Positions 28,141 to 62,830 of a DNA stretch of 64,000 bases are shown one piece after another. Position numbers and translations under genes: made by a program. This stretch comes from Candidatus Rokuibacteriota bacterium (GTDB lineage Bacteria > Methylomirabilota > Methylomirabilia > Rokubacteriales > CSP1-6). Under the pieces are notes generated by a model that was not told the DNA's origin, ran no database searches, and saw nothing but the letters and a program-made list of their open reading frames with translations. The first letter of the stretch is position 1. Every line of letters begins with the position of its first letter. The stretch spans positions 40,878 through 104,877 of the forward strand of contig JAUSJX010000078.1 in assembly GCA_030647435.1 (NCBI GenBank), read 5' to 3'.

Positions 28141-31640
<3,500 letters not shown>

Positions 31641-31686
31641 GGGATCACGCTTGACATGATATGCATTCTATACATATACTGGGGGC

Positions 31687-31970
31687 GTGGAGTTCGAGTG
31701 GGCCGGGCCAAACGAGAACACAATATCCGATCCCACGGCGTGGATTTCACGGAGGCGGCAAACACGTTTGACGACAGGCACGCGTCCTTCCAGTTCGACG
31801 GACGGCACTCCCTAGCGGAGGACCGATTCTTCCTCCTCGGCAAGACGCGGACTGGCCAATTGCTCATGACGGTCTTCACCTGGAGGGGCGTCAAGATTCG
31901 CATCATCTCGTCACGCCGGGCAAGCCGGCAGGAGGCCACTGGTTATGAGGAAAGAATTCGACTTCAGTAA
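31687..31970 (+). pseudogene. brnT: BrnT-family (DUF497) toxin gene with an apparent -1 frameshift after codon 7 (near 31705-31710)
   Basis: The GTG-EFEW N-terminus (after GGGGG) is in one frame. KREHNIRSHGVDFTEAANTFDD..IRIISSRRASRQE continues in the -1 frame. Alignment to brnT at 12750 places the break at one codon. Confidence 0.55.
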
Positions 31971-32283
31971 GGCGCGGCGGTCCGAGTTCTGGAAACACAT
32001 GCCGCCCCCGGACCAGCTCGCCCGCCACACTAAGGAGCGGATCACGATCTTCATCGACCTCGACATCTTGAACTTTTTCAGGGCCAGGGCGGCCAAGCGC
32101 GGCAAGCCGCCGTACCAGACCCAGATCAACCAGGCCCTGCGCGAGTACATGGAGGGCAGCCCTCCCCCGGGCAAGGGCGCCTTGGTCGCTGACGAGAAGC
32201 TCATCTCGCGGCTTGCCGAGCGGATCGCCGAGTACTCGACCACGAAGCGGAAGAAGCGTCGGGCGAAGAAGGCCAAGGCCTAG
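31945..32283 (+). CDS. brnA: BrnA-family antitoxin (ribbon-helix-helix)
   Basis: MRKEFDFSKARR N-motif and an RHH segment (ITIFIDLDILNFFRARAAKRGKPYQTQINQALREYM). It overlaps the brnT 3' end. Confidence 0.7.
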   Translation: MRKEFDFSKARRSEFWKHMPPPDQLARHTKERITIFIDLDILNFFRARAAKRGKPPYQTQINQALREYMEGSPPPGKGALVADEKLISRLAERIAEYSTTKRKKRRAKKAKA

Positions 32284-32286
32284 GTC

Positions 32287-33567
32287 CTACCACCCGACGA
32301 AGAGCGTTTCCGGCGCTTCGAGGCGGCGGATAATGGCTTGGGCAAAGCGCGCGCCGTCCGCGCCGTCGGCCACGCGGTGGTCGAAGGTCAGGGTGATCGG
32401 CAGCATCATGCGCGCCACAATCTGGCCGCCCCGCACGACGGGCTCCTCCCTGCCCCGCGCGACGGCGAGGATCGCCACTTCCGGGTAATTGATGATGGGA
32501 ATGGCGCCCGTGCCGCCGAGCGCGCCGATATTGGTGATCGTGAAGGTGCCGCCGCGGAGGTCGTCGAGCGCCGCCTTGCCGTCGCGCACCCGCTGGGCGA
32601 GCGCCGCAAGCTCGCGGGCGATGTCCATGACGGGCTTCGTGTCCACGTCGCGGATCACCGGGACGATGAGGCCCCGGTCCGTCGCCACGGCGATGCCGAG
32701 GTGGCAGTAGCGCTTGAGGATCAGCTCCCCCGCCCCGGCATCGAGGCTCGCGTTGAACTGCGGGTGCTCGTGGAGCGCCAGCGCCGCCGCCTTGAGGAGG
32801 AAGCTCGTGAGCGTCAGCGTGATGCCGCGCTGCTTGGCCGCCTCGAAGCTTCGCGTGACGATGGCGTTCAGATCGGTGACGTCGGCCTTGTCGAAGTGGG
32901 TCACGTGCGGGATCAGCGCGGCCGACAGCGCCATGCGCTCGGCAATGGTGCGGCGCAGATGCGAGAGCGGCTGGCGCTCGACGGGCCCCCACTGCTCGAA
33001 CTTGGGCAAGGGCGGCGGCTCGAGCCCGACGGCGGCGAGCGGCTTGGCCGGGCCCGCGGGAGCGGCGGCGCGCGCGGGCGCCCCGGGCTCCCCAGGCGCG
33101 CCCGAGGGCGTGCCCGCGCTCGCGCGCACGTCGTCGTCGGTGATGCGGCCCCCGGGGCCCGTGCCGCGCACGGCCTGAAGCTCCACGCCCAGCTCGCGCG
33201 CGAGGCGCCGCGTCGCGGGCGCGGCCGCAACCGGCCCGCCGTCGACGCGTGGCGCCGGCTTGGGCAGCGCCGCCGGCCCCGCCGATGCGGCAGCCGCGGG
33301 GGCAGAGCGTGCCGGCGCCGCCGTGCCACCGCCATCGGCGAAGCTCACGAGCGGCTGGCCGACCTTGACGGTCTGTCCGGGCTGGACATGGATCTTCTCC
33401 ACGCGCCCGGCGAAGGGCGACGGGATCTCGACCTGCGCCTTGTCGGTCTCGACCTCGAGGAGCGGCGAGTCCTCCTTCACGACGTCGCCCTCGTGGACCA
33501 GGACGGCGCGGATTTCGGCTTCGATCAATCCCTCGCCGAGATCTGGCAGGACAAAAGTGCGCGCCAT
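32287..33567 (-). CDS. Dihydrolipoamide acyltransferase (E2) of a 2-oxoacid dehydrogenase complex
   Basis: Lipoyl domain (VETDKA), Ala/Pro-rich linkers, an E3-binding domain, and a catalytic domain with DHRVADGA. Confidence 0.9.
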   Translation of the reverse strand: MARTFVLPDLGEGLIEAEIRAVLVHEGDVVKEDSPLLEVETDKAQVEIPSPFAGRVEKIHVQPGQTVKVGQPLVSFADGGGTAAPARSAPAAAASAGPAALPKPAPRVDGGPVAAAPATRRLARELGVELQAVRGTGPGGRITDDDVRASAGTPSGAPGEPGAPARAAAPAGPAKPLAAVGLEPPPLPKFEQWGPVERQPLSHLRRTIAERMALSAALIPHVTHFDKADVTDLNAIVTRSFEAAKQRGITLTLTSFLLKAAALALHEHPQFNASLDAGAGELILKRYCHLGIAVATDRGLIVPVIRDVDTKPVMDIARELAALAQRVRDGKAALDDLRGGTFTITNIGALGGTGAIPIINYPEVAILAVARGREEPVVRGGQIVARMMLPITLTFDHRVADGADGARFAQAIIRRLEAPETLFVGW

Positions 33568-33570
33568 CTA

Positions 33571-33652
33571 CACCCCCTCACCCTGACCTTCTCCCCCTCA
33601 CCCTACCCTCTCCCCCTCTGGGGGAGAGGACACAGGTGAGGGGGAGAGGGGA
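33571..33652. repeat. REP-like composite palindromic repeat (same family as 2221-2330)
   Basis: CCCTCACCC/CCCTCTCCCC..GGGGGAGAGG/GGTGAGGG nested inverted repeats in the E1beta-E2 intergenic spacer. Confidence 0.6.
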
Positions 33653-33668
33653 TCGCGCGGCGGCCATG

Positions 33669-34649
33669 CTAGAAGGCCAGGGTCTCGCGGGCGGCGGCAA
33701 GGACGCGCGCGACGTCAGGCACGTTCGCCTTCTCGCGCGCGAAGCCTGGGAAGGGCACGTCGTAGGCCGCGACCCGGCGGATGGGCGCCTCAAGCGAGAG
33801 GAAGGCGCCCTCCATGATGCTGGCCGCGATCTCGGCGCCGGGGCCGAAGCTCCGCGGCGCCTCGTGGACGATGACGGCGCGCCCGGTTTTGGCGACGGAG
33901 GCCGTCAGCGTCTCGCGGTCGAGCGGCGAGATGGTCAGCAGGTCGATGACCTCGGGCGCCACGCCGTCCTCCGCCTGGAGCGTTTCCGCCGCCTCGAGCG
34001 CCACCCGCAGCATCGCGCCGTAGGCGATCAGGGTCAGCCCCCGCCCCTCGCGGACGACCTGCGCCCTGCCGATGGGCATGGCCTCGCTCTCGTCGGGCAC
34101 TTCCTCCTTGGACGCGTGGTACAGCGCCTTGTGCTCGAAGAAGACGACGGGGTCGGGGTCGCGGATCGCGGCGACGAGCAGCGCGCGCGCCGTGCGCGGC
34201 CCCGACGGGATGACCATCTTGAGCCCGGGGATGTGGGCGTAGAACTGCTCCTCGCTCTCGGAGTGGTGCTCGAGCGCGCGGACGCCGCCGCCGAACGGCA
34301 TGCGGATCACCATCTGGCAGTGGAAGCGCCCCTGGCTGCGCTGGCGGTAGCGCGCGGCGTGGTTCTCGATCTGGTGAAAGCACTGGAAGGCGAAGCCGGA
34401 GAACTGGATCTCGCAGACGGGCTTGAGCCCGTAGAGCGCCATGCCGACCGAGCAGCCGATGATGGCCGCCTCGGCGAGCGGGCTGTCGATGACGCGGGTG
34501 CCGCCGAAGCGCCGGTGCAGGTCCTCCGTCACGCGGAAGACGCCGCCATCCACGCCCACGTCCTCGCCGATGATGAGCACGTCCGGGTCCCCCTCCATCT
34601 CCTCGAGGAGGGCCAGGTTCAGCGCCTTGACCATGTTCAGCTTTGCCAT
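33669..34649 (-). CDS. 2-oxoacid dehydrogenase E1 component beta subunit
   Basis: Transketolase-like Pyr and C-terminal domains, typical of E1beta. Confidence 0.9.
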   Translation of the reverse strand: MAKLNMVKALNLALLEEMEGDPDVLIIGEDVGVDGGVFRVTEDLHRRFGGTRVIDSPLAEAAIIGCSVGMALYGLKPVCEIQFSGFAFQCFHQIENHAARYRQRSQGRFHCQMVIRMPFGGGVRALEHHSESEEQFYAHIPGLKMVIPSGPRTARALLVAAIRDPDPVVFFEHKALYHASKEEVPDESEAMPIGRAQVVREGRGLTLIAYGAMLRVALEAAETLQAEDGVAPEVIDLLTISPLDRETLTASVAKTGRAVIVHEAPRSFGPGAEIAASIMEGAFLSLEAPIRRVAAYDVPFPGFAREKANVPDVARVLAAARETLAF

Positions 34650-34660
34650 GCGGCGCGCCG

Positions 34661-35080
34661 TCAGTCCCTCACGATGTGCATGATGGCGCCGGTCACCGCG
34701 GCAGGCAGCACGGTCAGCGCGAGGATGCGCAGGAGGGATGGCCCGAGCGCCTCGATCCGGTCGAGATCCGAGTGACCGGCGGCCAATCCGGCGCGGACGA
34801 TCCAGAGAAAGACGTCCACGAGGGCGACCGCCGGAGCCATGAACCAGCCGCGGCGCGGGACGCAGAAGCCCACGACGGCGGCGCCGAGCCCTATCAGCAC
34901 GGGGCGGCCCAGGTCATTCACCGCGCGCTCGACGCCCGAGCCCTGGTACTGCAGGCCCGGCACGTGCGCGAGGGCGAAATCCACGGCGAACGGCGCGACC
35001 CAGGCCAGGGCGCCCAGGCACACGGCGAAGAAAAAGAGCTCCCGGCGGCTGAACGGGTGCTCCGGCTTGATGACGATCAA
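34661..35080 (-). CDS. Hypothetical integral membrane protein (about 140 aa, 4 predicted TM) embedded between E1alpha and E1beta
   Basis: The TTG start overlaps the E1alpha TGA stop (TTGA). Hydrophobic segments are present. No family was recognised. Confidence 0.45.
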   Translation of the reverse strand: MIVIKPEHPFSRRELFFFAVCLGALAWVAPFAVDFALAHVPGLQYQGSGVERAVNDLGRPVLIGLGAAVVGFCVPRRGWFMAPAVALVDVFLWIVRAGLAAGHSDLDRIEALGPSLLRILALTVLPAAVTGAIMHIVRD

Positions 35081-36225
35081 TTCTGCCAACGGCTCGTCCT
35101 CCGCTGGCCCCGCATCGGGGGCGAGACGGGCTCGGAGCCGGCGGGCGCGGTGGCGTCCGCCGCGGCTTCCAGGCGCCCCGCCAGCTCCGCGCGCTCGGCC
35201 GCCACGTCCGGCGGCAGCTCCGCGTACGCGTGGTCGAACATGCCGAGCGGGTCGGCGGCCGGCACCGCCTCGAAGCGCTCGACGGCGCGGGCGATCTCCT
35301 CGTCCACCTGCTCGTCCACCGAAGGGTCGATCAATCCCTTCTTCTCGAGGTAGGCGCGGAAGCGCGTCAGCGGGTCCTTCTGCTCCCAGGCCTTGACCTC
35401 TTCGTCCGAGCGGTACTTGGTCGGGTCGTCCGCCGTCGTATGCACGCCGAGACGATACGTGACGCACTCGATGAGCGTCGGCCCCTCCCCCGCCCGCGCC
35501 TTGTCGACGGCGTCCCGGCTCGCCGCGTAGACTGCCAGCACGTCGTTGCCGTCCACCTGGATGCCGGGGAAGCCGTAGGCCAACGCCTTCTGGGCGATCG
35601 TGCGCGAGTTGGTCTGCTTCTTGAGCGGCACGGAGATGGCCCACTGGTTGTTCTGGCAGACGAAGACCACGGGCACGTGCCAGACGCCGGCGAAGTTACA
35701 CGCCTCGTGGAAGTCGCCTTCGGAGGTCGCGCCGTCGCCGAAGTAGACCATGACCACCGCGTCCTCGCCCCGGTACTGGATGCCGTACGCGATGCCCACC
35801 GCGTGAGGCAGCTGGGTCGCCACGGGAATGGTGATGGGCAGGTCGCGCTGCTCGGGGCCCGGCTGGCTGCCCTCGAGCCGGCCGGCGAAGAGCGCCAGGA
35901 TCTTCTCGATGGGCCAGCCGCGCCAGAGCATGGACGCCGTCTCGCGGAAGGAGGGCACCATCCAGTCGGTGGGCCTGAGCGTGAAGACACTGCCCATCTG
36001 CGAGGCTTCCTGCCCCTTGATCGGCGCGAAGGTGCCGATCCTGCCCTGGCGCTGGAGCTTGAGCATCCGCTCGTCGAGGCGCCGGCCCAGCACCATGGCG
36101 CGGTAGAGCCGCTTGAGGTCATCGGGGGAGAGCTTGGGCTCGAGCTTGGCGTCGAGCGTGCCGTCGCTGTCCAGGATGGACAGGCGCTCGGTGGGGAATT
36201 GCGGCTCGATCTGGGTCCTGGGCAT
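35077..36225 (-). CDS. 2-oxoacid dehydrogenase E1 component alpha subunit (ThDP-dependent)
   Basis: ThDP motif GDGATSEGDFHEACNFAGVWHVPVVFVCQNNQWAIS. Confidence 0.9.
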   Translation of the reverse strand: MPRTQIEPQFPTERLSILDSDGTLDAKLEPKLSPDDLKRLYRAMVLGRRLDERMLKLQRQGRIGTFAPIKGQEASQMGSVFTLRPTDWMVPSFRETASMLWRGWPIEKILALFAGRLEGSQPGPEQRDLPITIPVATQLPHAVGIAYGIQYRGEDAVVMVYFGDGATSEGDFHEACNFAGVWHVPVVFVCQNNQWAISVPLKKQTNSRTIAQKALAYGFPGIQVDGNDVLAVYAASRDAVDKARAGEGPTLIECVTYRLGVHTTADDPTKYRSDEEVKAWEQKDPLTRFRAYLEKKGLIDPSVDEQVDEEIARAVERFEAVPAADPLGMFDHAYAELPPDVAAERAELAGRLEAAADATAPAGSEPVSPPMRGQRRTSRWQN

Positions 36226-36324
36226 GAAGTCCTCGTTCGCCCGCTATGGTACCGCGAACCGGTCGGCGTGGACAGGGCGCGATATACGGCGGCCGCTCCG
36301 CCGCCTGTGAGAGGATGAAGGCCT

Positions 36325-37680
36325 ATGCCATTCTCATCTTTCGGGCTTCACTCCGATCTCCTCCGCGGCGTCAAGGAGATGGGCTTCACCCGCCCCACCC
36401 CGATCCAGCAGGACGCGATTCCCCCGGCGATGGAAGGCCGCGACGTGCTCGCCTGCGCCATGACGGGCAGCGGCAAGACGGCGGCGTTCGTCCTGCCGAT
36501 CCTCCACCGCCTCATGCCCAAGCGCCGCGGGGTCACCCGCGCGCTGATCATCACGCCGACACGCGAGCTGGCGGCCCAGATCGACGAGCACCTGAGCCAG
36601 ATGGCCGTGCACACGCCGATGTCGGGCGCGGCCGTCTTCGGCGGCGTCGGCATGGGGCCGCAGGAGCACGCCTTCAGGACGGGCGTGGACGTCATCGTCG
36701 CCACGCCGGGACGGCTCCTCGACCACTTCCGCTTCCCCTACGCGAAACTCGAAGGCCTCGAGATCCTGGTCCTCGACGAGGCCGACCGGATGCTCGACAT
36801 GGGCTTCCTGCCCGACATCCGCCGCGTCCTCAAGCACCTGCCGCCCCGGCGGCAGACGCTCTTCTTCTCGGCGACGATGCCGGCGCCCATCATGACGCTG
36901 ACGCGTGAGCTGCTGCGCAACCCGGCCACGATCAACCTCGAGCGCAAGTCCGCGCCCGCCGTCGGCATCACCCAGGCCGTGTACCCGGTCGCCCAGGACG
37001 GCAAGTCCTCCCTGCTGCTCGAGCTGATCAAGCGCGGCGAGATGAAGAGCGCGCTGGTCTTCACGCGCACCAAGCACCGCGCTAACCGGCTGGCCGACTT
37101 CCTCTCGCGCCACAGCGTCGCCTGCGAGCGCATCCACGGCAACCGGAGCCAGGCGCAGAGGACAGCGGCGCTCGCGGGCTTCAAGAGCGGCCGGTTCCGG
37201 ATCCTCGTCGCCACCGATATCGCCGCGCGCGGCATCGACGTGGAGGCGCTCAGCCACGTGATCAACTTCGACGTGCCGAAAGTGCCGGACGACTATATTC
37301 ACCGCGTCGGCCGCACGGCGCGCGCGGAGCTGACGGGTGACGCCTTCACCTTCGTCTCGCCGGAGGAGGAGAGGGATCTCTCCGCCATCGAGCGCGCCGT
37401 CGGCAAGCGCCTGCCGCGGGTGATCCTGCCCGACTTCGAGTACAGCCGGCGCGGGTCGGAGAAGCTCGAGATCCCGCTGGCGGAGCGCATCGCGGCCATC
37501 CGCGGGCGCAAGGCCGAGGACCGCGCCCGCGCCAAGACCAACGCCCAGCGGCGCGGCCAGCACCAGGCATCGCAGGGCCCGCGCTCCGGCGCTACACCCA
37601 CCCCGGCTTCCCAACCTAGACGGCCGGCACAGTCTTGGCCCGGCAAGCCGTCGGGCCCGCGCGGCCACGGCATTCGATAG
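36325..37680 (+). CDS. DEAD-box ATP-dependent RNA helicase (RhlE-like)
   Basis: Q-motif, Walker A AMTGSGKT, DEAD (VLDEAD), SAT, HRVGRTAR. Confidence 0.9.
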   Translation: MPFSSFGLHSDLLRGVKEMGFTRPTPIQQDAIPPAMEGRDVLACAMTGSGKTAAFVLPILHRLMPKRRGVTRALIITPTRELAAQIDEHLSQMAVHTPMSGAAVFGGVGMGPQEHAFRTGVDVIVATPGRLLDHFRFPYAKLEGLEILVLDEADRMLDMGFLPDIRRVLKHLPPRRQTLFFSATMPAPIMTLTRELLRNPATINLERKSAPAVGITQAVYPVAQDGKSSLLLELIKRGEMKSALVFTRTKHRANRLADFLSRHSVACERIHGNRSQAQRTAALAGFKSGRFRILVATDIAARGIDVEALSHVINFDVPKVPDDYIHRVGRTARAELTGDAFTFVSPEEERDLSAIERAVGKRLPRVILPDFEYSRRGSEKLEIPLAERIAAIRGRKAEDRARAKTNAQRRGQHQASQGPRSGATPTPASQPRRPAQSWPGKPSGPRGHGIR

Positions 37681-37780
37681 CGCGGCATTGACGGGCGCCG
37701 GTCGCTCCCGATTCCCCGCTACGAAACAATACGCCGGCGCCGCTCTTCAGGGCTGTCAGGGCCTTCCGGTCAACTCAGGC

Positions 37781-38368
37781 TCAGGCGAAGAGGTCGCGGA
37801 CCTGGATTCTGGCATGAGGCGCCGCGAGAGGACTGACCTGACGCGAGGGGTCGAGGACCTCACGCCTCGCGTAGCGCGCGCCGAAGGGCGCAGCAGCATC
37901 GGGCGCCGGCTCGCGGTACACCTCGAGGACGCGATCGACGAGGTTGACGATCCAGTAGTCCGGGATACCGGCTCTGGCATAGACGCTGCCCTTGTGGTCG
38001 CGATCGAACACAAGGCTCGATTCGGACACCTCGACGACCAGGGCGGCGCGAGAGGGATGGGAGCTCCTGTAGTCCTCTGGCTCGCCGGGGACCACGGCTA
38101 CGTCGGGCTCGGGCTCTGACTCCTCGTCAAGCCCCATCGGTCCCTGCGTACGGACGTTCCACGACGGGCCGAAGGCCCTTTCGAGGACCCGCGCTGTTTT
38201 CTGGATGGACGTGTAGTGTGGGGCGCCCTGCGGCTCGGCGACCAGGAGCTCGCCACCGATCAGCTCAATGGGGTCGCCGGGCTGGAAGACGCCCAAGTCG
38301 ATGAGCCGCTCGTATTCGATCCGGCTCCAGCGGCGCGTCTTTCTCTTGTGGATCGCCATTACCGGCAT
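37781..38368 (-). CDS. Uma2-family (DUF820) putative restriction-endonuclease-like protein
   Basis: RWSRIEYERLIDLG N-motif and a PD-(D/E)xK-like core (EPEPDVAV...EVSESS...DYW). Confidence 0.7.
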   Translation of the reverse strand: MPVMAIHKRKTRRWSRIEYERLIDLGVFQPGDPIELIGGELLVAEPQGAPHYTSIQKTARVLERAFGPSWNVRTQGPMGLDEESEPEPDVAVVPGEPEDYRSSHPSRAALVVEVSESSLVFDRDHKGSVYARAGIPDYWIVNLVDRVLEVYREPAPDAAAPFGARYARREVLDPSRQVSPLAAPHARIQVRDLFA

Positions 38369-38489
38369 CGTACCGGCGGCCAGCGAGCGCGTCAATGTCT
38401 CCGGATAGTGACACCGTCAGACGACGGGCGGCCTCGCGAGAGCGCCCGCCTCGCGCCAGTGGCGGCGGACGCCGTTCTGGAGCCGCGCC

Positions 38490-39170
38490 TCAGGCAGGGC
38501 TGAGACGCTGCTCCACGTGCCGCGCGTAGCGAGACATGGAGTAGGTGCAGATCCAGTACACGACCGCGATGAAGAGGTAGAGGGCGAAGGGGCGCACCTC
38601 GCGGTTGTTCACGACCTGGGCGGCCTTGGTCAGGTCCATGAAGCCGATGATCGAGGCGAGCGAGGTGTCCTTGAAGAGCACGATGAATTGCGTCACCAGC
38701 GACGGGATCATGTTCTTGAGCGCCTGTGGCAGGACGACGTGGCGCATCGTCTGCGCGCCCGTCAGGCCGACGGCGGTCGCCGCCTCCACCTGCCCCCGCG
38801 CCACCGACTGAACGCCCGCGCGTACGATCTCGCCGAGGTAGGCCGCCTCAAAGATGACGAAGGCGCTCAGCGCCACCCAGAACTCGGGGATGGGACGTCG
38901 CAGCACGATGGGCACGACGATCCACAACCAGAAGATGACCATGACGAGCGGGACTCCCCGGAAAAACTCGACGTAGAGCGTGGCGGGGATGCGGATCCAC
39001 CGCTGGGGCGCAAGCCGGCCGAGGCCGATGAAGATGCCGAGGAGGAAGCCCAGGACGATGGCGGGGATGGCGAGCCGCAGCGTGCCGCCGACGAAATTCC
39101 CGAAACCCAGGAAGCCCTGGACCATCAGGAACGGAAGGTTGCGCCAGATGATCTCGACGTCGGAGGTCAC
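38490..39170 (-). CDS. Amino-acid ABC transporter permease (polar amino acid / His-Glu-Gln-Arg-opine family)
   Basis: The GTG start overlaps the upstream TGA. An EAA-like loop (EAATAVGLTGAQTMRHVVLPQA) is present. Confidence 0.8.
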   Translation of the reverse strand: MTSDVEIIWRNLPFLMVQGFLGFGNFVGGTLRLAIPAIVLGFLLGIFIGLGRLAPQRWIRIPATLYVEFFRGVPLVMVIFWLWIVVPIVLRRPIPEFWVALSAFVIFEAAYLGEIVRAGVQSVARGQVEAATAVGLTGAQTMRHVVLPQALKNMIPSLVTQFIVLFKDTSLASIIGFMDLTKAAQVVNNREVRPFALYLFIAVVYWICTYSMSRYARHVEQRLSPA

Positions 39171-39892
39171 CGCCGCCTCCTGCCGCCGGCCGTGATGAGG
39201 CCGGGGATCGCGGTCCTCCGCTCGACCCAGGCCATCAGCGACGCGATCCCAACGCAGAGGACCAGGTAGATGAGTGTTCCCGCCGTCAGCGCCTCGATAG
39301 CCTTGGCGGTGTAGGTCTCGATCTGGCGCGTCTGGAAGGTCAGCTCGGCCACGCTGATCGTGAGCGCGATCGAGGAGTTCTTGAGCAGGTTGAGCGACTC
39401 GCTGGTCCCCGGCGGGATGATGATCCGGAGCGCCACCGGCAGGATGACGTAGCGGTAAGACTGGAAGGTCGTCAGCCCCGAGGCGACGGCCGCCTCCATC
39501 TGCGTCTTGGGGATGGACTGGATGCCCGAGCGCAGCACCTCGGAGAAGCGCGCGCCGCTGTAGACGCCGAGGGCGAGCACGCCCGCCCAGAACTCGAGCC
39601 CGTGCCCCAACATCCACTCGCGGATCATCTCGGGCAGGATCGGAGGCACGCCGAAGTACCAGAAGAACATCCAGACCAGGAGCGGCACGTTGCGGAAGAA
39701 CTCGACGTAGAAGGTCGCCAGCGCCCGGAGCGGCCGGAGCTTCACGGTCCGAAGCGCCCCCGACACGATGCCCAGCGCCACCGCCAGCAGCCACGCCAGC
39801 ACCGACAGCTCGAGCGTGACGATGAGCCCGCTCAGCAGCCACTGCCCGGACTCGCCGGTCCACAGCACCGACCACTTGAACGTGTAGTTCAC
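39167..39892 (-). CDS. Amino-acid ABC transporter permease (PAAT family)
   Basis: EAA-like loop MEAAVASGLTTFQSYRYVILPVA and 5 TM helices. Confidence 0.8.
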   Translation of the reverse strand: MNYTFKWSVLWTGESGQWLLSGLIVTLELSVLAWLLAVALGIVSGALRTVKLRPLRALATFYVEFFRNVPLLVWMFFWYFGVPPILPEMIREWMLGHGLEFWAGVLALGVYSGARFSEVLRSGIQSIPKTQMEAAVASGLTTFQSYRYVILPVALRIIIPPGTSESLNLLKNSSIALTISVAELTFQTRQIETYTAKAIEALTAGTLIYLVLCVGIASLMAWVERRTAIPGLITAGGRRRR

Positions 39893-39900
39893 TGCTCGGC

Positions 39901-40017
39901 CCCCTCACCCTCCCCTCTCCCCGAGGGGGACAGGGAAATCGGTTCCCTCTCCCTTCCAGGGCGAGAGGGCATTCGGTCCCCTCTCCCTTCCAGGGAGAGG
40001 GCAGGGTGAGGGTGGGT
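39901..40017. repeat. REP-like composite palindromic repeat: two tandem CCCTCTCCCTTCCAGGGAGAGGG hairpins flanked by CCCTCACCC/GGGTGAGGG
   Basis: Read directly from the sequence. Confidence 0.6.
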
Positions 40018-40028
40018 GAACGCGCCGC

Positions 40029-40211
40029 TCACTGGATCAGCTCGTCCGCCCGCCCCAGCAGCGACTGCGGGATCGTCAGGCCGAGGGCTTTGGCGGCCTT
40101 GAGGTTCATGACCAGCTCGAACTTGGTGGGTTGCTCGACTTCCTTCTCCACGAAGACGCGCACGTTCTTCCGTAGCATCCCGTGCTCTTCGGTAAAGAAG
40201 CGCTGGCTCAT
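40029..40211 (-). pseudogene. Remnant of the C-terminal about 40 codons of a PF04392-type ABC substrate-binding protein (..[35 protein letters not shown])
   Basis: The conserved C-terminal signature of this SBP family is present, but no upstream body exists. The nucleotide sequence is about 90% identical to 41000-41110. Confidence 0.6.
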
Positions 40212-40783
40212 GCTTCCTTACTCGGGGGTGCCTGCTTTTGCAGCGACTCCCAGATCGTGCCGAGGCCCAACCGGGCGGCCCAGTCGCCAATGTATGTCCT
40301 GTCGACGCCGGCGCCCGATATCCGGAGCATCCCCAGGATGTCACGCAGGTGGCGCTCGGATCCCCCGTCGCTGAAGTAGAGCATCTTGTAGAGGATGATG
40401 TCCTCCGGCATCGCGAGGTAAGCGTCGAGGTCGGGCGCGATCGTCTTGCGCTGACGCCGCTCGAACTGCGCGCGATCGTAGGGGGCGTCCTTCTTCAGCA
40501 TGAGGTCGATTTTGAGGCCGGCGGCGGGGTGAATGATGTTGAACTGGCCTTGGGTTCTGATCGCCTCGCGCACCGCCTCCTCGCTGATGTAGAACTGATC
40601 GGCAGGGAAGCGTGCCAACAGTCCCGGCACATGGCTCAGGTTAATATCTGCCACGACGCCAATGTCCTGGGTGAAGCGCGGCTCGCCGTAGTAGATCGAT
40701 GCTTGGGATCCGGCGATCATGTACGCGATCCCCAGGGCATCCATGGTCTCCACGAGGTGACGGAGGAGCTCAGTCTGATCCAC
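40208..40783 (-). CDS. Nucleotidyltransferase-fold protein (minimal pol-beta-like NTase; possible TA or abortive-infection-type module component)
   Basis: [23 protein letters not shown] resembles the NTase GS..(D/E)h(D/E)h core, but the second acidic residue is Gly. GTG start. Confidence 0.5.
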
Positions 40784-40943
40784 TGAGAAGTCTCTTGGCC
40801 ACTTGCTGTCTCAACTCCGTGGCACCCCATTCTGGGTGCTCGGCGGCCAGAAAGGCCGTGAGGCGTTCTCTGGCCTGCGTCCACGCCTCGTGCGCAATTC
40901 GCAGCCGATCCATCCCAGACTTTGCCTCGAAGACCCTGGCCAT
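40770..40943 (-). CDS. Small (57 aa) helical protein encoded immediately upstream of, and overlapping, the NTase gene; putative cognate partner
   Basis: 14-nt overlap with the NTase start. No family was recognised. Confidence 0.4.
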   Translation of the reverse strand: MARVFEAKSGMDRLRIAHEAWTQARERLTAFLAAEHPEWGATELRQQVAKRLLSGSD

Positions 40944-40993
40944 GTCGGGATCCACTGCGTCGAGACGAGGCGGAACTGGTCGCGGCTGGCCCA

Positions 40994-41980
40994 TCACTGG
41001 ATGACCTCGTCCGCCCGCCCCAGCACCGACTGCGGGATCGTCAGGCCGAGGGCCTTGGCGGTCTTGAGGTTGATCAGCAGCTCGAACTTCGTCGGCTGCT
41101 CGACGGGGAGGTCGGCGGGCTTGGCGCCCTTGAGAATCTTGTCCACGTAGGTAGCGGCGCGCCGCCACGCATCAGCATTGTTCGGTCCATAGGACATGAG
41201 GCCCCCGGCATCGACATACTCCCTCCATGGGTACACTGCCGGCAGCCGGTTCTTGGCCGCCAGGTCCACGAGGCGTCTTCGCTCACTGGAGAACATGCCG
41301 CTTGGCAACACAGTCAGAGCACCCACGCGCCCTGGTCATGTCCGAGAAGGCCCTGTCGAAATCGGCGGGACCTCGCGCCTCAACGAATTGAGGCCGCACC
41401 CCCAGCGCCCGCGCCGCGACGTCTGCTTCCTTCAGCATGTCCTTGACCGTGCGTTCGCCGGCGGCACCTGGCTGCCAGAGGACAGCGACGCGACTGACCC
41501 CCGGAACGGCCTGCTTGAGCAGTTCCAGCCACTTGCCGACTAGCTCCGGGGAGAGGATCGACAACCCCGTGAGATTGCCGCCCGGCCGCGCAAGGCTGGT
41601 GACGAGCGCGCTCGTCACCGGCCAGCACCAATGAAGACAATGGGAATGGTCCTGGTCGCTTGCTTGGCGACCAGCGCGTGGGGTGTGCCTGGGGCCACGA
41701 TGACATCAACCTTAAGCGCAACCAGTTCGACCGCAAGAGCGGGGAGCCGCTCGAACTTCCCCTCGGCATCTCGCCATTCAATCACGAGGTTGCGGCCCTC
41801 GACGTAACCGAGGTCACGCAGTCCTTGGAGGAAGGCCTCGGGCACGTGGGGGGCAGCGGCCCGGTTGAGCGCCAGGATGCCTATTCGAGCGATCTTGGCC
41901 GCCTGCTGCGCCTCGGCGGCGAACGGCGCGGCGACGACGCCGCCAGCCAGAGTGCCGAGGAACTCCCGCCGATCCATCAC
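40994..41980 (-). pseudogene. PF04392-type ABC substrate-binding protein gene disrupted by at least 2 frameshifts (N-terminal Tat-signal part 41615-41980, middle 41283-41618, C-terminal 40994-41326)
   Basis: Three consecutive ORFs in different frames together reconstruct the full family architecture (MMDRREFLG...ARPGGNLTGLS...[54 protein letters not shown]). Confidence 0.7.
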
Positions 41981-42109
41981 TGGATTACCCCGTCGGCGCG
42001 CAGCAGGTGGGACTGTGGGATCGTCAGGCCGAGCGCCTTGGCAGTGTCGAGATTGATGCTCAATCTCCTTCGATGCGGGCCAACGATCTCGAGAACAGGC
42101 GCCCTGACC

Positions 42110-43483
42110 TTAGCGTCTGAAGCCAGAGTGGTCAAGCGACGCTGGTCTCTGCGCCCGGGGGTGCAGGACGTCGATCGCCCAACCCAGATCGAGGCGCTCC
42201 CCGAGCCAGCCGGCGCACGCCGTGCGGGCGTCGAGGCGAAGGCCATTCGAGTCGTGACAAGCGCGGAGAGCCTCGACGGGATCATCGGGCACCGCGGCAG
42301 GCGGCGGCACGTCAGGCAGCGGGCGGCCGTCCGGCCGCCGGAACCGGAGGGCCCCGTCAGGGCCGCGCTCGACCTGGTACCCCTCCTCGTGCACCGCCCG
42401 GTGATGCCTGCGGCAGAGGAGCGCAAGGTTCGAAAGCGTCGTCGGCCCGCCGTGCGCCCAGTGGCGGAGATGATGCCCCTGGCCATTGCTCACGCCGCAA
42501 CCGGGGAACCGGCAGCCCAGGTCCCGATGGTGGAGCGCTCGCCGTAAGGCCGGGGGAATCGTCCGGGTCCGGGCCCCGATCTCCAGCAGGCGCCCGGCGT
42601 CGTCGTGGCGCATCACCACCCGGCTCGCGTCGCACGCCAGGCGCCGGGACGTTTCCGCGGAAACGCGCGCGCCGTCCTCGAGGACGGATTGGCCCGGCTG
42701 ATCCGGATCGGCCAGCGCCTCGGCATCGACGTGGACCACCACCTGGTAGCGCTCGCCCGGGGCGCCGGGATCGAGCCCATGGTGCAGGGCCGTTTCCGCG
42801 AGCAGGGTCAGGGCATCGGCCTGCCGCTGGGCCATCGAGGGCGTTTCCGCGGAAACGCCCATGGGCTTGGCGTCGCCGTTCGGCACGCGGGCTCGCTGGT
42901 ACAGGGCCTCCCGCGCTGCCGCGAGCGCCTGGACGAGCAGCGCGCCAACCTCCGGCTCAAGCCGCCCCCGGAGGACCACCATGCCGTCCTCGTCCTGGTG
43001 CACGTGAAGCGCTCGGCTCGCGTGCCGCAGGGTGGTCTCCCGAGCCTCGGCCCGCCGATCCACCAGGCGCCAGCCGCGCACGATCCGCTCGACATGGGCG
43101 GCCGTGCCGGCGCGCCCCACGGCCAGGAGCCGCGCCTCGGTCTCCGGCGTGGCCACCCGGGTGAGCGCACGGACCTTGGCATACGAGAGCTCCCCGCGAC
43201 CCAGGGCTTCGGCGAGGAGCGGCAGGGTCTCGAGGGCGCGCGCGACACGGACCCGCTCACGGGCCGCGCCCAGATCGAGCCCCACCCGCCAGGAGAGCCA
43301 GGCGGCGCAGGAGCGGAAGCCCGTGTTCCACCCCCCGCGGGCGTCGAACTCCCGGATCATGGCGAGCAGGCGCGCGGTGGCGGCGTCGAGGTGCGCGGAC
43401 AGCTCGGCGATCTCGTCGCCGAGCCGGTCGAGCGCCGCAAAGGGATGCTGCGAGGCAGTCACAGGTGAGACGCGGCTCTGCAT
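42110..43483 (-). CDS. DUF222-domain HNH endonuclease (13E12-repeat-type), copy 1
   Basis: The N-terminal DUF222 region is followed by an HNH motif (HHRDLGCRFPGC...HHLRHW...LCRRHHRAVHE). ATG follows AGGAGGG. Confidence 0.85.
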   Translation of the reverse strand: MQSRVSPVTASQHPFAALDRLGDEIAELSAHLDAATARLLAMIREFDARGGWNTGFRSCAAWLSWRVGLDLGAARERVRVARALETLPLLAEALGRGELSYAKVRALTRVATPETEARLLAVGRAGTAAHVERIVRGWRLVDRRAEARETTLRHASRALHVHQDEDGMVVLRGRLEPEVGALLVQALAAAREALYQRARVPNGDAKPMGVSAETPSMAQRQADALTLLAETALHHGLDPGAPGERYQVVVHVDAEALADPDQPGQSVLEDGARVSAETSRRLACDASRVVMRHDDAGRLLEIGARTRTIPPALRRALHHRDLGCRFPGCGVSNGQGHHLRHWAHGGPTTLSNLALLCRRHHRAVHEEGYQVERGPDGALRFRRPDGRPLPDVPPPAAVPDDPVEALRACHDSNGLRLDARTACAGWLGERLDLGWAIDVLHPRAQRPASLDHSGFRR

Positions 43484-43775
43484 GGCGAGCCCTCCTGCGC
43501 CGACTCTACACCCCGGTTTCCGCGCCTCCGTCGAGCCCCCGGGGCGCGCGTTTCCGAGACGGGGAATGATTTTTGACTCGACCCCGCTCGAATGCGCGCC
43601 GGCCGACGAGTGTGGGCCGCTGGGCCGTCACCTTCAGAGCACTGCCGCCGAATGACCATGGCGCCCCGCGGAAGCTGTCAAGCGGAAAAACACGCGATGC
43701 CGACTCTCGGTGTATCCCTCCGCATACAGTGACGCTGCTCGGAGTTCTCGGCTAGCCTCGGCGTCACTCAGCGCC

Positions 43776-44072
43776 ATGAAGCACGCAGAGCGACCCGGTC
43801 TCCATCGCTGGTCCCGCCGCGAGTACGGGTTGATGATCGACCACGGCCTCCTCGACGGCCTTCTGCTCGTCAAGGAGCCCCAGCACAGCCCGCACCGGAC
43901 GGAGGTCTGCGTCGTTCGCCGCTCGCCGCGTGACTACCCCGCCGCGCATCCGACTCGCCCGGCGCTCATCGCCGAAGTCGCGCTGCCGGTAGGCCAGCGT
44001 GAGCACCAACTGGCGCACCGGGACGAACGGAATCGCTTCGCCCACGAGGTGGACTGCGGGATGCCCGGTTGA
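43776..44072 (+). pseudogene. Truncated and internally deleted Uma2-family paralogue
   Basis: HRWSRREYGLMIDHGLL and SPRDYPAAHPTRPALIAEV match the ends of the Uma2 protein at 37781-38368, but about 40 central residues and the C-terminus are missing. Confidence 0.45.
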
Positions 44073-47793: not shown

Positions 47794-48299
47794 CGCGCCG
47801 ATCCTGCCAGATTGCGACGGCCCGGTCAAACCCGGCCCCGGCGCGTGCTGCAGGGGCAGAGTCCAACCCCGAGACTGGGACGGATTACTGATGGGAGGGG
47901 GCGGGAGCGCGCAGGTCGGCCGCCTCCTCGCTCGCCGCCGACCTGCGAAAGCCTACGATCTGCGGGCGCCAGCGAGCGTGCGGCGCCAGGACCCCCTGGT
48001 AGAGGAGCCAGTGCACCGCGGGCCGCGGCGTCAGCGCGGCCAGCCTCTCCAGGAACTCGGGATACACCAAAAGTCGGCATCCCACGCTTTTCCGCTTGAC
48101 AGCCTCGGCCGGGTGAGTCGGTCTCTCGGCAGCAGCCCTCGGCAAGTGCCGGCCCAGCGGCATGCATCGGTCCACCGGTGCGCGATCGGGCGGGATCCGA
48201 TCGAAAATCATTTCGCGTCCCGGGATCGCCCGGCCCGGGCGCTTCCCGGGGGCTCGAAAATCAGGGTGTAGGGTCACTTCAACAGAAGGAGGGCTCGTT

Positions 48300-49685
48300 A
48301 TGCAGGTCCATTCGCCATCTGAGCTGGACCGGCTCGGCGACGAGATCGCCGAGCTGTCCGCGCACCTCGACGCCGCCACCGCGCGCCTCCTCGCCTTGAT
48401 CCGAGAGTTCGACGCGCGCGGGGGATGGAACACAGGCTTTCGCTCCTGCGCCGCCTGGCTGAGCTGGAGGGTGGGGCTTGATCTGGGCGCGGCGCGTGAA
48501 CGGGTCCGGGTCGCGCGCGCCCTCGAGACGCTGCCACTCGTCGCCCAAGCCCTTGCCCGCGGGCAGGTGTCGTACGCCAAGGTCCGCGCCATCACCCGCG
48601 TGGCCACGCCGGAGACCGAAGCTCGACTGCTGGCGGTGGCGCGCGCGGGCACGGCCGCCCAGGTCGAGCGGATCGTACGCGGTTGGCGGCGGGTGGACCG
48701 GCGGGCCGAGGCTCGGGAGACCGCGCAACGGCATGCGAGCCGAGCACTTCACCTGCATCAGGACGAGGACGGCATGGTGGTCCTCAGGGGGCGGGTCGAG
48801 CCGGAGGTCGGGGCGGTGCTCGTCCAGGCGCTCGCAGCAGCGCGCGAGGCCCTCTACCAGCGAGCCCGGGCCGAGGCGACGACCGCGCGCCCGGCTGATC
48901 CGACCGAGGACACCCCTACCACGGCCCAGCAGCAGGCCGATGCACTGGCCCTGCTCGCAGAGACGGCCCTCCATCACGGACTCGATCCCGGCGCCCCGGG
49001 CGAGCGCTATCAAGTGGTGGTCCACGTCGACGCCCAAGCGCTGGCCGATCCGGATCAGCCGGGCCAGTCCGTCCTCGAGGACGGCGCGCGCGTTTCCGCG
49101 GAAACGTCCCGGCGCTTGGCCTGCGACGCAAGCCGGGTGGTGATGCGCCACGACGACGATGGGCGCCTGGTGGAGATCGGTGCCCGGACCCGGACGATTC
49201 CACCCGCCTTGCGGCGAGCGCTCCACCATCGGGACCGGGGCTGCCGTTTCCCCGGCTGCGGCGTCCGCTTCGGCCAGGGGCATCATCTCCGCCACTGGGC
49301 GCAGGGCGGGCCGACGACGCTTTCGAACCTCGCGCTACTCTGCCGCCGGCATCACCGAGCGGTGCACGAGGAGGGCTACCAAGTCGCGCGCGGCCCCGAC
49401 GGGACTCTCCGATTCCGGCGGCCGGACGGGCGCCCGCTGCCTGAGGTGCCGCCGCCCGCTGCAGTGCCCGGTGATCCCGTCGAGGCTCTCCGCGCGTATC
49501 ACGACTCAATCGGCCTTCACGTCGACGCGCGGACGGCGTGCGCCGGCTGGCTCGGGGAACGGCTGAATCTGACTTGGGCGATCGACGTCCTGCACCCCCT
49601 GGCCCAAGGAGCCCGACCTCGTCGATCATCCGAACGGGGATCGCCGCCTGCCCACCTTTCGACGACCGGAGCGCAGGCGACCTAA
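48300..49685 (+). CDS. DUF222-domain HNH endonuclease, copy 2 (about 90% identical to copy 1, opposite orientation)
   Basis: Same motifs as copy 1. ATG follows AAGGAGGG. About 150 bp of upstream sequence is also shared. Confidence 0.85.
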   Translation: MQVHSPSELDRLGDEIAELSAHLDAATARLLALIREFDARGGWNTGFRSCAAWLSWRVGLDLGAARERVRVARALETLPLVAQALARGQVSYAKVRAITRVATPETEARLLAVARAGTAAQVERIVRGWRRVDRRAEARETAQRHASRALHLHQDEDGMVVLRGRVEPEVGAVLVQALAAAREALYQRARAEATTARPADPTEDTPTTAQQQADALALLAETALHHGLDPGAPGERYQVVVHVDAQALADPDQPGQSVLEDGARVSAETSRRLACDASRVVMRHDDDGRLVEIGARTRTIPPALRRALHHRDRGCRFPGCGVRFGQGHHLRHWAQGGPTTLSNLALLCRRHHRAVHEEGYQVARGPDGTLRFRRPDGRPLPEVPPPAAVPGDPVEALRAYHDSIGLHVDARTACAGWLGERLNLTWAIDVLHPLAQGARPRRSSERGSPPAHLSTTGAQAT

Positions 49686-62639: not shown

Positions 62640-62810
62640 CAGCACCGAGACGTCGAGGTCCGGGTTGAGCCTGCCCATCTCGGCGTCGACGGCCCGGCGC
62701 ACGTGCTCCCTCTCCTCCAGGTCCGACAACACGATGAGAGCGTCCGCGCGTTCTCTGATCATCGCCGAGAGGGCGCTGTCGAATTCGTTTGGGCACCTTC
62801 ACACCGTAGC
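62640..62810 (-). pseudogene. Internal fragment of a PF04392-type SBP (..EFDSALSAMIRERADALIVLSD..)
   Basis: Translation of the minus strand gives the conserved central motif of the family with no N- or C-terminal parts. Confidence 0.4.
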
Positions 62811-62830
62811 CCTGGTGCACATTCCCTTTC

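Follow-up and report, generated by a model that had tools for sequence, protein, structure and literature searches.

A 64,000-nt stretch of contig JAUSJX010000078.1 (positions 40,878 to 104,877) from a Candidatus Rokuibacteriota bacterium, called the window below, harbors a compact pair of overlapping genes for a small protein and a nucleotidyltransferase-like protein, which is enclosed between two direct copies of the 3′ end of genes for solute-binding proteins (SBPs) of the PF04392 family. All genes under discussion belong to the minus strand, coordinates are given as window positions, and gene identities along the locus were taken from Pfam. Read 5′ to 3′ on this strand, the locus consists of an HNH/DUF222 gene, an SBP fragment designated copy C, a broken PF04392 SBP gene ending in copy B of the repeat, the antitoxin gene, the toxin gene, an open reading frame (ORF) in which the stub of an acyl-CoA dehydrogenase (ACDH) gene is joined to copy A of the repeat, a cluster of hairpins similar to repetitive extragenic palindromic (REP) elements, and two amino-acid ATP-binding cassette (ABC) permease genes, the first of which starts at 39892 (Table 1). 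This composition is likely explained by the capture of a MenAT1-type toxin–antitoxin (TA) module into the junction between an SBP gene and its permease gene and by subsequent disabling of the module. The contigs used for comparison are referred to by numbers with the prefix L.

Copies A (40029-40139) and B (40994-41104) are ungapped direct repeats with 100 of 111 nt identical (90.1%; 100 of 113 if the comparison is made over 113 nt), so that pairwise alignment confirmed the initial impression, put forward in an earlier note on this DNA, of about 90% identical repeats encoding C-termini of PF04392 SBPs. A repeat finder combined them in one 116-nt family (40024-40139 and 40989-41104, 89% identity, 965-nt spacing) having copy C as its 61% member; both repeats described earlier are therefore real, and a third, degenerate one (41977-42070) had been overlooked. 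The window has three occurrences of the 26-nt pattern of the repeat core, compared with none in 100 shuffles, which argues that the repeats are not a matter of chance. Copies A and B are both translated into VEQPTKFEL(V/L)(M/I)NLK(A/T)...(L/V)LGRADE(L/V)IQ with the stop codon following, differ in nine codons (four synonymous and five conservative replacements) and have uninterrupted identical stretches of 27 and 20 nt. The PF04392 gene (Pfam, E=4e-17) terminates in copy B, and copy A provides the last 36 codons of a 60-codon chimeric ORF (40029-40211), the first 24 codons of which correspond to the ACDH N-terminus. A fourth and more divergent C-terminus of the PF04392 type (IPTRFDLVINIQTAKAIGITLPREVFTRAEKIIER before the stop) is encoded at ~62800-62900, close to where the window ends, by another, separate SBP gene.

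Table 1. Features of the locus, listed in the direction of transcription of the minus strand
Feature	Window position	Strand	Remarks
HNH/DUF222 gene	42110..43483	-	Upstream of copy C; the window here resembles the usual locus of the module (L002, L088) and no longer L170
Copy C, orphan SBP 3′-end fragment of ~30 codons	41977..42070	-	By alignment; stop overlaps start of next SBP gene
PF04392 SBP pseudogene (apparent)	40994..41980	-	Pfam matches on all three ORF pieces; orthologue of the SBP directly before the permease in relatives
Copy B, SBP 3′ end, upstream direct repeat	40994..41104	-	Carries Shine-Dalgarno-like GAGGT and a stop overlapping the antitoxin ATG
MenA1-like antitoxin, 74 aa (57-aa reading starts at 40943)	40770..40994	-	PF18993-like
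MenT1-like nucleotidyltransferase toxin, 191 aa	40208..40783	-	G25-S26, T38, D40, G42 (D in the family), D93, K133, D148
Toxin codon 42, GGC (Gly)	40658..40660	-	GAC (Asp) in the family and in the 99.2%-identical contig
ACDH stub, first 24 codons	40140..40211	-	ATG overlaps toxin stop (ATGA); Pfam Acyl-CoA_dh_N, E=0.0025
Putative illegitimate junction, GTCG	40136..40139	-	Common to ACDH codon 25 and SBP 3′ end; three-way alignment
Copy A, second SBP 3′ end, downstream direct repeat	40029..40139	-	In-frame fusion with the ACDH stub
Three REP-like GC-rich hairpins	39895..40028	.	Bounded by CAGTGA (40029-40034) and CAGTGA (39889-39894); missing in L170-L173
Amino-acid ABC permease	39167..39892	-	Collinearity with relatives resumes; 94.8% nt identity to L170 over 35074-39894

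The exact sequence of the larger protein of the pair is deposited at NCBI as MDO8477345.1 from a metagenome-assembled genome of Candidatus Rokubacteria, and 541 homologues were retrieved from a collection of 5.8 billion proteins, many of them named Rokubacteria or Methylomirabilota. Most homologues match PF08843 (AbiEii) weakly (50 of 56 at E<=0.1, best 1.1e-6), 40 of 56 match DUF6036, and NTP_transf_5 is matched as well. Searching the sequences of PDB with the family profile gave the fungal nucleotidyltransferase-like protein 5uvd (E=4.5e-6) and the toxin MenT1 of Mycobacterium tuberculosis (8an4, E=4.7e-4), the alignment with the latter pairing EPRLTQDIDVV with EPRFTRDVDIVV. The AlphaFold (AF2) model derived from the alignment has a mean predicted local distance difference test (pLDDT) score of 91.2, and MenT1, alone or in the MenAT1 complex, occupies the first five Foldseek ranks for this model in PDB (E from 8e-9 to 1e-7, template modeling (TM) scores of 0.56-0.68; for 8an5/8an4 E of ~1e-8 and TM of 0.65-0.68), followed at lower rank by ANT(2''), LnuA and CCA-adding enzymes. 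Model, Foldseek and profile agree in the bi-lobed nucleotidyltransferase fold of the MenT/AbiEii kind; the nucleotidyltransferase fold assumed from the letters alone was borne out by the pLDDT 91 model and the MenT1 matches, and profile similarity, the lack of which would have spoken against it, was detected, the family profile finding MenT1 itself. MenT1 (Rv0078A, with MenA1, Rv0078B, as its antitoxin) adds nucleotides to tRNA acceptor stems (PMC10435456), and by analogy the window protein as a small nucleotidyltransferase of the Pol-beta superfamily would nucleotidylate tRNA at the acceptor end and thereby block translation.

The small partner matches in the window only PF18993, the "Rv0078B-related antitoxin" family (E=6e-4 to 1.3e-3), and 28 of 30 partner homologues match the same family at E<=0.01 (best 6e-11). 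Of 80 genome loci, which represent Rokubacteria, Planctomycetota, Acidobacteriota and further groups, most have an ORF of ~60-75 codons directly before the gene for the toxin, and the order of the two genes together with their overlap, 14 nt in the window, is kept across phyla, which lends support to the TA cassette suspected before. The overlap and the 191-aa length of the toxin stand as first described; the 57 aa ascribed to the partner are less probable. The conserved N-terminal motif of the family (IEVVDD, LDAVDPD in the window) was found by alignment upstream of the 57-aa start codon, and gene callers gave an antitoxin of 74-75 aa on L169 and L174, so that the true antitoxin is probably the 74-aa form, the ATG of which at 40994 overlaps the SBP stop as TGATG. 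A HEPN-like R-x4-H motif (RLRIAH) in the partner was considered and rejected, as its His is not conserved in the family alignment. In the MenAT1 complex, a single MenA1 molecule is bound asymmetrically to two MenT1 protomers via its N-terminal part (PMC10435456), and the small upstream protein would, by homology, neutralize the toxin through direct binding.

Catalytic residues of the toxin deserve separate consideration. The family consensus reads GS ... T-x-D-x-D, and among 119 aligned homologues no exceptions were found at G25 and T38 and hardly any at S26, 118 sequences have Asp at position 40, and D93, K133 and D148 are invariant or nearly invariant, the distance of 15 residues between K133 and D148 being the same as between K137 and D152 of MenT1. 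The complete catalytic set (G-S, T-x-D-x-D, motif III Lys and motif IV Asp) is thus present in the family, and the window copy fails at G42, which stands at the position of MenT1 D43: Asp occupies position 42 in 116 of the 119 homologues and Gly is found solely in the window copy. The replacement of the second carboxylate in GS..QDIG by Gly, pointed out in the earlier note, was therefore read correctly and is unique in this set. Protein P0250 and contig L179 are the same as the window protein at all other residues (14-191) but have Asp42, the difference being a single base (GAC versus GGC, with A in L179 at window position 40659). In Pol-beta-type nucleotidyltransferases the two carboxylates have a general catalytic role. 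Taken together with what was proposed for MenT1, where D41A abolishes toxicity and D41 and D43 are thought to hold the metal-triphosphate (PMC10435456), this role makes the D42G toxin probably catalytically dead. It weighs against such a statement that D43 was not among the residues mutated in the MenT1 study (PMC10435456), and the loss of activity is to that extent inferred. Signs of decay are present elsewhere in the family. The homologue from L001 (6001-6576, P0002), the closest one on a long contig, belongs to the same module lineage and carries D40A, an independent loss of the first catalytic Asp, and in L088 (4738-4990) and L128 (1336-1572) the toxin gene is deleted, leaving an orphan antitoxin whose C-terminus runs into a REP hairpin before the ACDH gene through a junction common to both. 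R125M was examined as a second defect of the window toxin and rejected, Met being frequent at this position in the closest cluster. The ratio of nonsynonymous to synonymous substitution rates (dN/dS) is 0.26 for the window versus L169 and 0.14 for deeper pairs, values that are suggestive and not used as evidence. Judging from the sequences compared, the window pair is probably a member of the MenAT1 family that was inactivated only recently, a decaying remnant.

The predicted fold of the toxin, the family of its partner and the order of the genes assign the pair to putative TA modules of the MenAT1 type, and the earlier alternative of a toxin–antitoxin or abortive-infection cassette is narrowed to the first option, the family being MenAT1 and not AbiE or MNT/HEPN. 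Likeness to the M. tuberculosis system includes a small antitoxin (68 aa there, ~74 here) directly upstream of a toxin of ~190-197 aa, the best structural match, alignment of the GS and T-x-D-x-D motifs, and PF18993 as the antitoxin family. The window pair differs in the Gly at the D43 position and in being translationally coupled into SBP/ACDH operons with no evident promoter of its own. Several results weigh against the assignment. The window toxin gave no match in Pfam, NCBIfam or PADLOC, even at E<=10, and so falls below every Pfam model; its identity to MenT1 is only ~19%; and a profile of its C-terminal half did not find MenT1 among PDB sequences, so that K133 and D148 are equated with K137 and D152 by spacing and fold only. 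The window antitoxin scores 20.1 bits, under the PF18993 cut-off of 27.1, and the antitoxin profile did not detect MenA1 among PDB sequences, giving chance matches only. The AbiE systems (type IV TA; DUF1814, PF08843) have toxins of the same broad nucleotidyltransferase family, as the weak PF08843 matches of the homologues reflect, but an AbiEi antitoxin consists of two domains, one of them a DNA-binding winged helix (PMC10435456), unlike the 57-74-aa PF18993 partner found here, and PADLOC matches neither protein. MNT-HEPN pairs likewise combine a small Pol-beta-type nucleotidyltransferase with a small helical protein; the window partner is too short for HEPN, the roles would be reversed, and neither family is matched in Pfam. 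One may also suppose that the pair is no TA system at all and that the nucleotidyltransferase has another role, for instance nucleotidylation of small molecules or antibiotics in the manner of ANT(2'')/Lnu, with the small protein as an accessory. Foldseek matches to ANT(2'')-Ia, LnuA and other small nucleotidyltransferases (E from 1e-4 to 1e-3), the coupling of the module into metabolic and transport operons where it does not stand alone, and the lack of matches to defense-system models are in line with this idea, to which we nevertheless give a very small probability: the best matches by both fold and profile are MenT1, the partner falls into the Pfam family of MenA1, and the invariant Thr of T-x-D-x-D corresponds to T39 of MenT1, whose mutation was tested there and which is phosphorylated in entry 8rr5. 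Patchy presence, deletions of the toxin only (L088, L128) and independent hits in the active site (D42G; D40A in L001) are, moreover, typical of TA decay.

The MenAT1-type module has a usual home, which is well represented among the contigs with the closest toxins (L001, 82% aa identity; L002-L006; L174; L169, 93% nt identity). In all of them a tandem array of 1-6 PF04392 genes is followed by the antitoxin, toxin and ACDH genes, the last SBP stop overlapping the antitoxin start and the toxin stop overlapping the ACDH start. The longer contigs contain a complete 383-aa ACDH gene, mostly followed by a gene for enoyl-CoA hydratase, L169 ends 45 nt into the ACDH gene, and none of these contigs (L001, L002-L006, L174, L169) has an SBP 3′ end after the toxin. 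The ACDH stub of the window can be aligned to the beginning of the complete ACDH genes of L001, L002 and L018 and is 92% identical to the 5′ end of the L176 ACDH gene. Comparison anchored on orthologous ACDH genes (80-94% aa identity) revealed a very plastic junction upstream of them with five arrangements: the module lineage of the window; a second lineage only 55-60% identical to it; the antitoxin alone; no module (SBP stop, REP hairpin, ACDH start); and, in L089, an SBP gene, antitoxin, toxin, an 80-codon SBP 3′ fragment and a C1 peptidase gene. The SBP immediately upstream in these loci is a different paralogue nearly every time (41-72% aa identity), and phylogenies of the module and ACDH disagree. 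An unusual order was met in L010 (540-2370), where a 14-codon SBP 3′ fragment, antitoxin, toxin, a full SBP gene and a second copy of the first 9 antitoxin codons follow each other next to a VapC-like PIN gene, resembling a circularly permuted or tandem-duplicated unit of SBP and module.

Comparison anchored on the permease genes led to relatives of another kind. In L170-L173, whose permeases are 94-98% identical to the highly conserved one downstream of copy A, the stop of the PF04392 SBP gene overlaps the permease start (..GAGGTGATCCAGTGAACTAC..) and no module is present; the SBP gene is preceded by more SBP genes and an ABC ATPase gene, and the genes downstream (second permease, Uma2 except in L172, DEAD-box helicase and E1 dehydrogenase) are those of the window at 30-39.9 kb. 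Collinearity of the window with L170 extends over 30434-39894 (91-97%) and 40994-42036 (87%), and the 1,099 nt between these blocks (39895-40993) are missing from L170-L173. This insert of ~1.1 kb comprises the antitoxin and toxin genes, 24 ACDH codons, the second SBP 3′ end and the REP hairpin cluster. The comparison suggested in the earlier note thus yielded relatives lacking the insert, and the opposite pattern, tandem paralogous SBP genes without an insert in all relatives, was not found. The body of the window SBP gene is 88.7% identical to the permease-adjacent SBPs of L171/L170 and at most 75% identical to any SBP adjoining the module. Aligned with the intact 330-aa gene of L170 (88.4% nt identity) it has exactly two indels, of -4 nt at ~41624 and -2 nt at ~41331, and is therefore an apparent pseudogene, unless the frameshifts are assembly errors; exact-sequence look-ups found neither a frameshifted SBP piece nor the 60-aa chimera on record. 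The frameshifts, together with the HNH/DUF222 gene that takes the place of the upstream ATPase of relatives, are in accord with the decaying transporter locus surmised before. Relative to the single SBP 3′ end of L170, copy B is 97.3% identical and copy A 92.8%, the best value for A among the 3′ ends compared, and the base of L170 is present in A or in B at every one of the 11 positions that distinguish them; on this ground both repeats look like descendants of the single 3′ end kept in uninterrupted relatives.

Upstream of ~41900-42036 the window is no longer similar to L170, and copy C with the HNH/DUF222 gene is found in place of the ATPase side. The junction of the HNH-gene end with copy C is of the L088 type, and its presence in L088 indicates that copy C was inherited and is not recent. 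Several further features of this region were recorded. The HNH/DUF222 gene with its upstream region occurs twice as an inverted repeat of 1.5 kb (42150-43718 and 48059-49606, 89% identity), and of the two copies only the first is then followed by an SBP 3′ fragment. The repeat flanks ~4.3 kb with a Uma2 remnant and genes for aldehyde:ferredoxin oxidoreductase, beta-lactamase-like and glyoxalase-like proteins, and it could mediate inversion. The Uma2-like ORF adjoining the HNH gene (43710-44072) is the second one in the window and apparently degraded; the intact gene of this family (PF05685, 37781-38395) follows the permeases, as in L170 and L171 and not in L172.

The anatomy of the two junctions is informative with respect to the way in which the module arrived. 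Downstream, the sequence of the chimeric ORF agrees with the start of the ACDH genes in L001, L002 and L018 as far as ..GAGAAGGAAGTCG and with an SBP 3′ end from GTCGAGCA.. on, GTCG being common to both. Upstream, identity to L169 amounts to 93% in the module and to only 83% between copy B and the SBP 3′ end that precedes the module in L169, a drop that indicates a switch of ancestry at or just before the SBP stop and antitoxin start. One homology junction and one microhomology junction are the defining anatomy of homology-facilitated illegitimate recombination (PMC3240628), a process proposed for orphan immunity-gene arrays in type VI secretion system (T6SS) clusters of Vibrio cholerae and for displaced Rhs C-termini (PMC5361080). 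The mechanism that may be inferred for the window from its junctions resembles this process, and the donor could just as well be the same genome as linear DNA acquired through transformation or conjugation. Common features include the homology-anchored end, the microhomology end, the piling up of gene-end remnants and the lack of a recombinase (PMC3240628; PMC5361080). In contrast to T6SS/Rhs arrays (PMC5361080), anchoring would take place here in the gene 3′ ends of a housekeeping-type family very rich in paralogues and not in a conserved part of the toxin locus, and the outcome is duplication and not displacement. In the scenario that we favor, a segment that began in an SBP 3′ end, contained the antitoxin and toxin genes and reached ACDH codon 24 would have been copied to the junction of another SBP paralogue and its permease gene, with the upstream join made via homology common to SBP 3′ ends and the downstream join made illegitimately at GTCG, 111 nt before the stop of the recipient SBP gene. 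An illegitimate join located in the recipient upstream of the homologous crossover would duplicate the stretch between them, here the 111 nt from GTCG to the stop. Later events would include the single GAC to GGC change giving D42G in the toxin, two frameshifts in the host SBP gene, landing of the REP hairpin cluster between copy A and the permease gene, and replacement of the region upstream of the SBP gene by the HNH/DUF222-bearing segment through at least one further recombination. As for the relative order, L179 has the identical ACDH'::SBP junction yet Asp42, by which the capture is placed before D42G.

Capture by duplication or recombination, as had been suggested, gains weight from module-free flanks in L170-L173 and from module relatives that have an intact ACDH gene and no downstream repeat. 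A second bracketed case, which supports the capture pattern, is given by L176-L178 (L176 5700-6560), where a toxin of the same 90% cluster is preceded by a 14-codon SBP 3′ fragment and located between an SBP gene and an AMP-ligase gene. The toxin there ends in ..QAPPSELIQ and stop, its C-terminus being joined through a CGAGT microhomology junction to the four terminal SBP codons (ELIQ) with their stop, and compared with L001 a block of AMP-ligase and SBP genes bounded by SBP 3′ ends is inserted in L176 between toxin and ACDH. Rfam, tRNA, promoter and terminator scans gave nothing relevant. Other observations tell against capture in its simplest form. The divergence of copies A and B (9.9%) exceeds that of the flanks from L170 (5.2%), so that duplication after the split from L170 fits only if A evolved faster, if B is in part donor-derived or if L170 lost the insert. 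Since the upstream region is not L170-like, one insertion cannot explain the whole mosaic and at least one more recombination is needed, which probably took place again between SBP 3′-end fragments. Finally, both Logan unitigs covering the locus (L087 and L168) end inside the repeats and overlap each other by only 12 nt, so that linkage across each repeat copy comes from the window assembly alone.

The last observation is what would be expected if a short-read assembler had joined unrelated contigs via the SBP 3′-end repeat and no genome had the module between this SBP and the permease, for which the exact runs of 27 and 20 nt in A and B and the origin of the window from a metagenome-assembled genome also speak. 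Such an artefact is nonetheless regarded as very unlikely. In each of two samples the unique ACDH'::SBP junction is contained within one contig: Logan contig L087, which is 100% identical to 40059-41056, and JGI contig L179 from the other sample, 99.2% identical to 40127-41034. Both ends of the unit run into SBP 3′ ends, from which it follows that a repeat-flanked cassette exists whatever lies beyond, and variants specific to copy A flank the shared run at either end (by the stub in L087, by the REP cluster and permease in L168) and are joined consistently by the window contig.

Our first model, based on synteny with L001 and L002, left the module in its ancestral place and took copy A for a deletion remnant; it was dropped as permease-anchored relatives show an uninterrupted SBP-permease junction, on account of which a deletion can be maintained only with an added gene conversion. 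In this modified form both loci would once have been on one chromosome in the same orientation, a single microhomology deletion would have removed everything between ACDH codon 25 and codon ~295 of the SBP gene adjacent to the permease, and an earlier gene conversion of ~900 nt would explain the SBP gene in front of the module. The HNH-copy C junction and the first ~100 nt of the SBP gene do resemble the usual locus (L002, L088) and not L170, ACDH follows the module in all relatives of the lineage, GTCG microhomology is typical of deletions, and copy A, being contiguous with the permease gene, could be the orthologue of the L170 SBP 3′ end (92.8%). This history is nevertheless considered unlikely, although it deserves more attention than the other alternatives. 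It needs a long conversion tract with its end precisely at the SBP stop; permease-adjacent SBPs are closer to the SBP body (88.7%) than those of the arrays are (<=75%) and copy B is 97.3% identical to the L170 3′ end; and L176-178 are independently bracketed by SBP 3′ remnants in another context, which fits repeated capture better. The deletion history, too, takes two events.

Capture without a recombinase may be set against a site-specific mobile cassette, in which a recombinase would recognize a site in the SBP 3′ end and the repeats would be similar to attL and attR. Orphan SBP 3′ fragments are indeed recurrent and sometimes stacked (copy C, two of 16 codons in L095, L096, L088, L001), and three module contexts (window, L089 and L176) are bracketed by SBP 3′ sequence. 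Biased detection accounts for part of this apparent excess, as only 3′ ends have the conservation needed to be recognized in short pieces. No integrase or transposase gene was found in or beside the unit, the downstream breakpoints differ (111 nt, ~240-290 nt or 80-97 codons, and 14 nt before the stop) as do the microhomologies (GTCG, CGAGT), and a stub of the neighboring gene is carried along, which is not expected from a site-specific system. We regard a cassette of this type as extremely improbable.

Returning to recombinase-free capture, the properties of SBP 3′ ends themselves are worth attention. The terminal codons GAC GAG GTG ATC CAG TGA contain a strong candidate Shine-Dalgarno sequence, GAGGTGATC, located 7 nt before the GTG or ATG that overlaps the stop (window 40994-41011; L170 8990-9010; L002 ~1435-1455). 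This element is complementary to the 3′ tail of 16S rRNA. From its position before the overlapping start, the SBP C-terminus doubles as a predicted ribosome-binding site of the next cistron, be it SBP, antitoxin or permease, and this role may be the reason why short 3′ remnants persist before the first genes of arrays. Such remnants were noticed in SBP arrays as two stacked 16-codon 3′ fragments in L095 (4505-4625), a signal-peptide sequence joined to the final 12 codons in L099 (~540-807), and SBP fragments of 32-33 codons between genes in L096 (2214-2309) and L001 (784-885). In the window, an ORF starting from a GTG that overlaps the copy A stop runs in frame through the REP cluster to a TGA overlapping the permease GTG (40031-39889), so that the chain of overlapping cistrons from toxin to permease is unbroken on paper, which could be a matter of chance in DNA of 69% GC. 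The REP-like hairpins (CCCTCACCC..CCCTCTCCC-loop-GGGAGAGGG) occur seven times in the window versus 0.03 expected by pattern (39895-40028; ~2232-2257; 33606-33629), and a REP element is also located between the SBP stop and ACDH start in module-free L095-L099 and L127 and at the toxin-deletion site in L088 and L128.

A possible generalization, which we offer as tentative and rather doubtful, is that the conserved last ~110 nt of PF04392 SBP genes, with dozens of paralogues, serve in Rokubacteria as a generic landing pad for gene capture operating without a recombinase. If so, segments starting with an SBP 3′ end, such as TA modules or the AMP-ligase and SBP block of L176, would be captured at other SBP 3′ ends through homology on one side and microhomology on the other and at once translationally coupled to the host operon. 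This would explain the stacked orphan 3′ fragments, the mismatch between phylogenies of module and flanks, and the repeated bracketing by SBP 3′ remnants, and would represent a housekeeping-gene analogue of the Rhs and T6SS C-terminal displacement arrays. The kind of system and the capture process are already known and the locus is a further example of them; since the mechanisms are known and the locus is a decaying remnant, its general importance is modest. For the family, the comparison extends MenAT1, characterized only in M. tuberculosis, to a large divergent clade of more than 540 matches in Rokubacteria, Planctomycetota, Verrucomicrobiota and Acidobacteriota that present domain models largely miss. 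The locus itself would be a natural example of a TA module moving without the machinery of mobile elements, with readable junctions, insert-free targets and donor-type loci known, and the order in which capture would be followed by single-base inactivation of the toxin is one that is expected for the decay of addiction modules and has rarely been documented.

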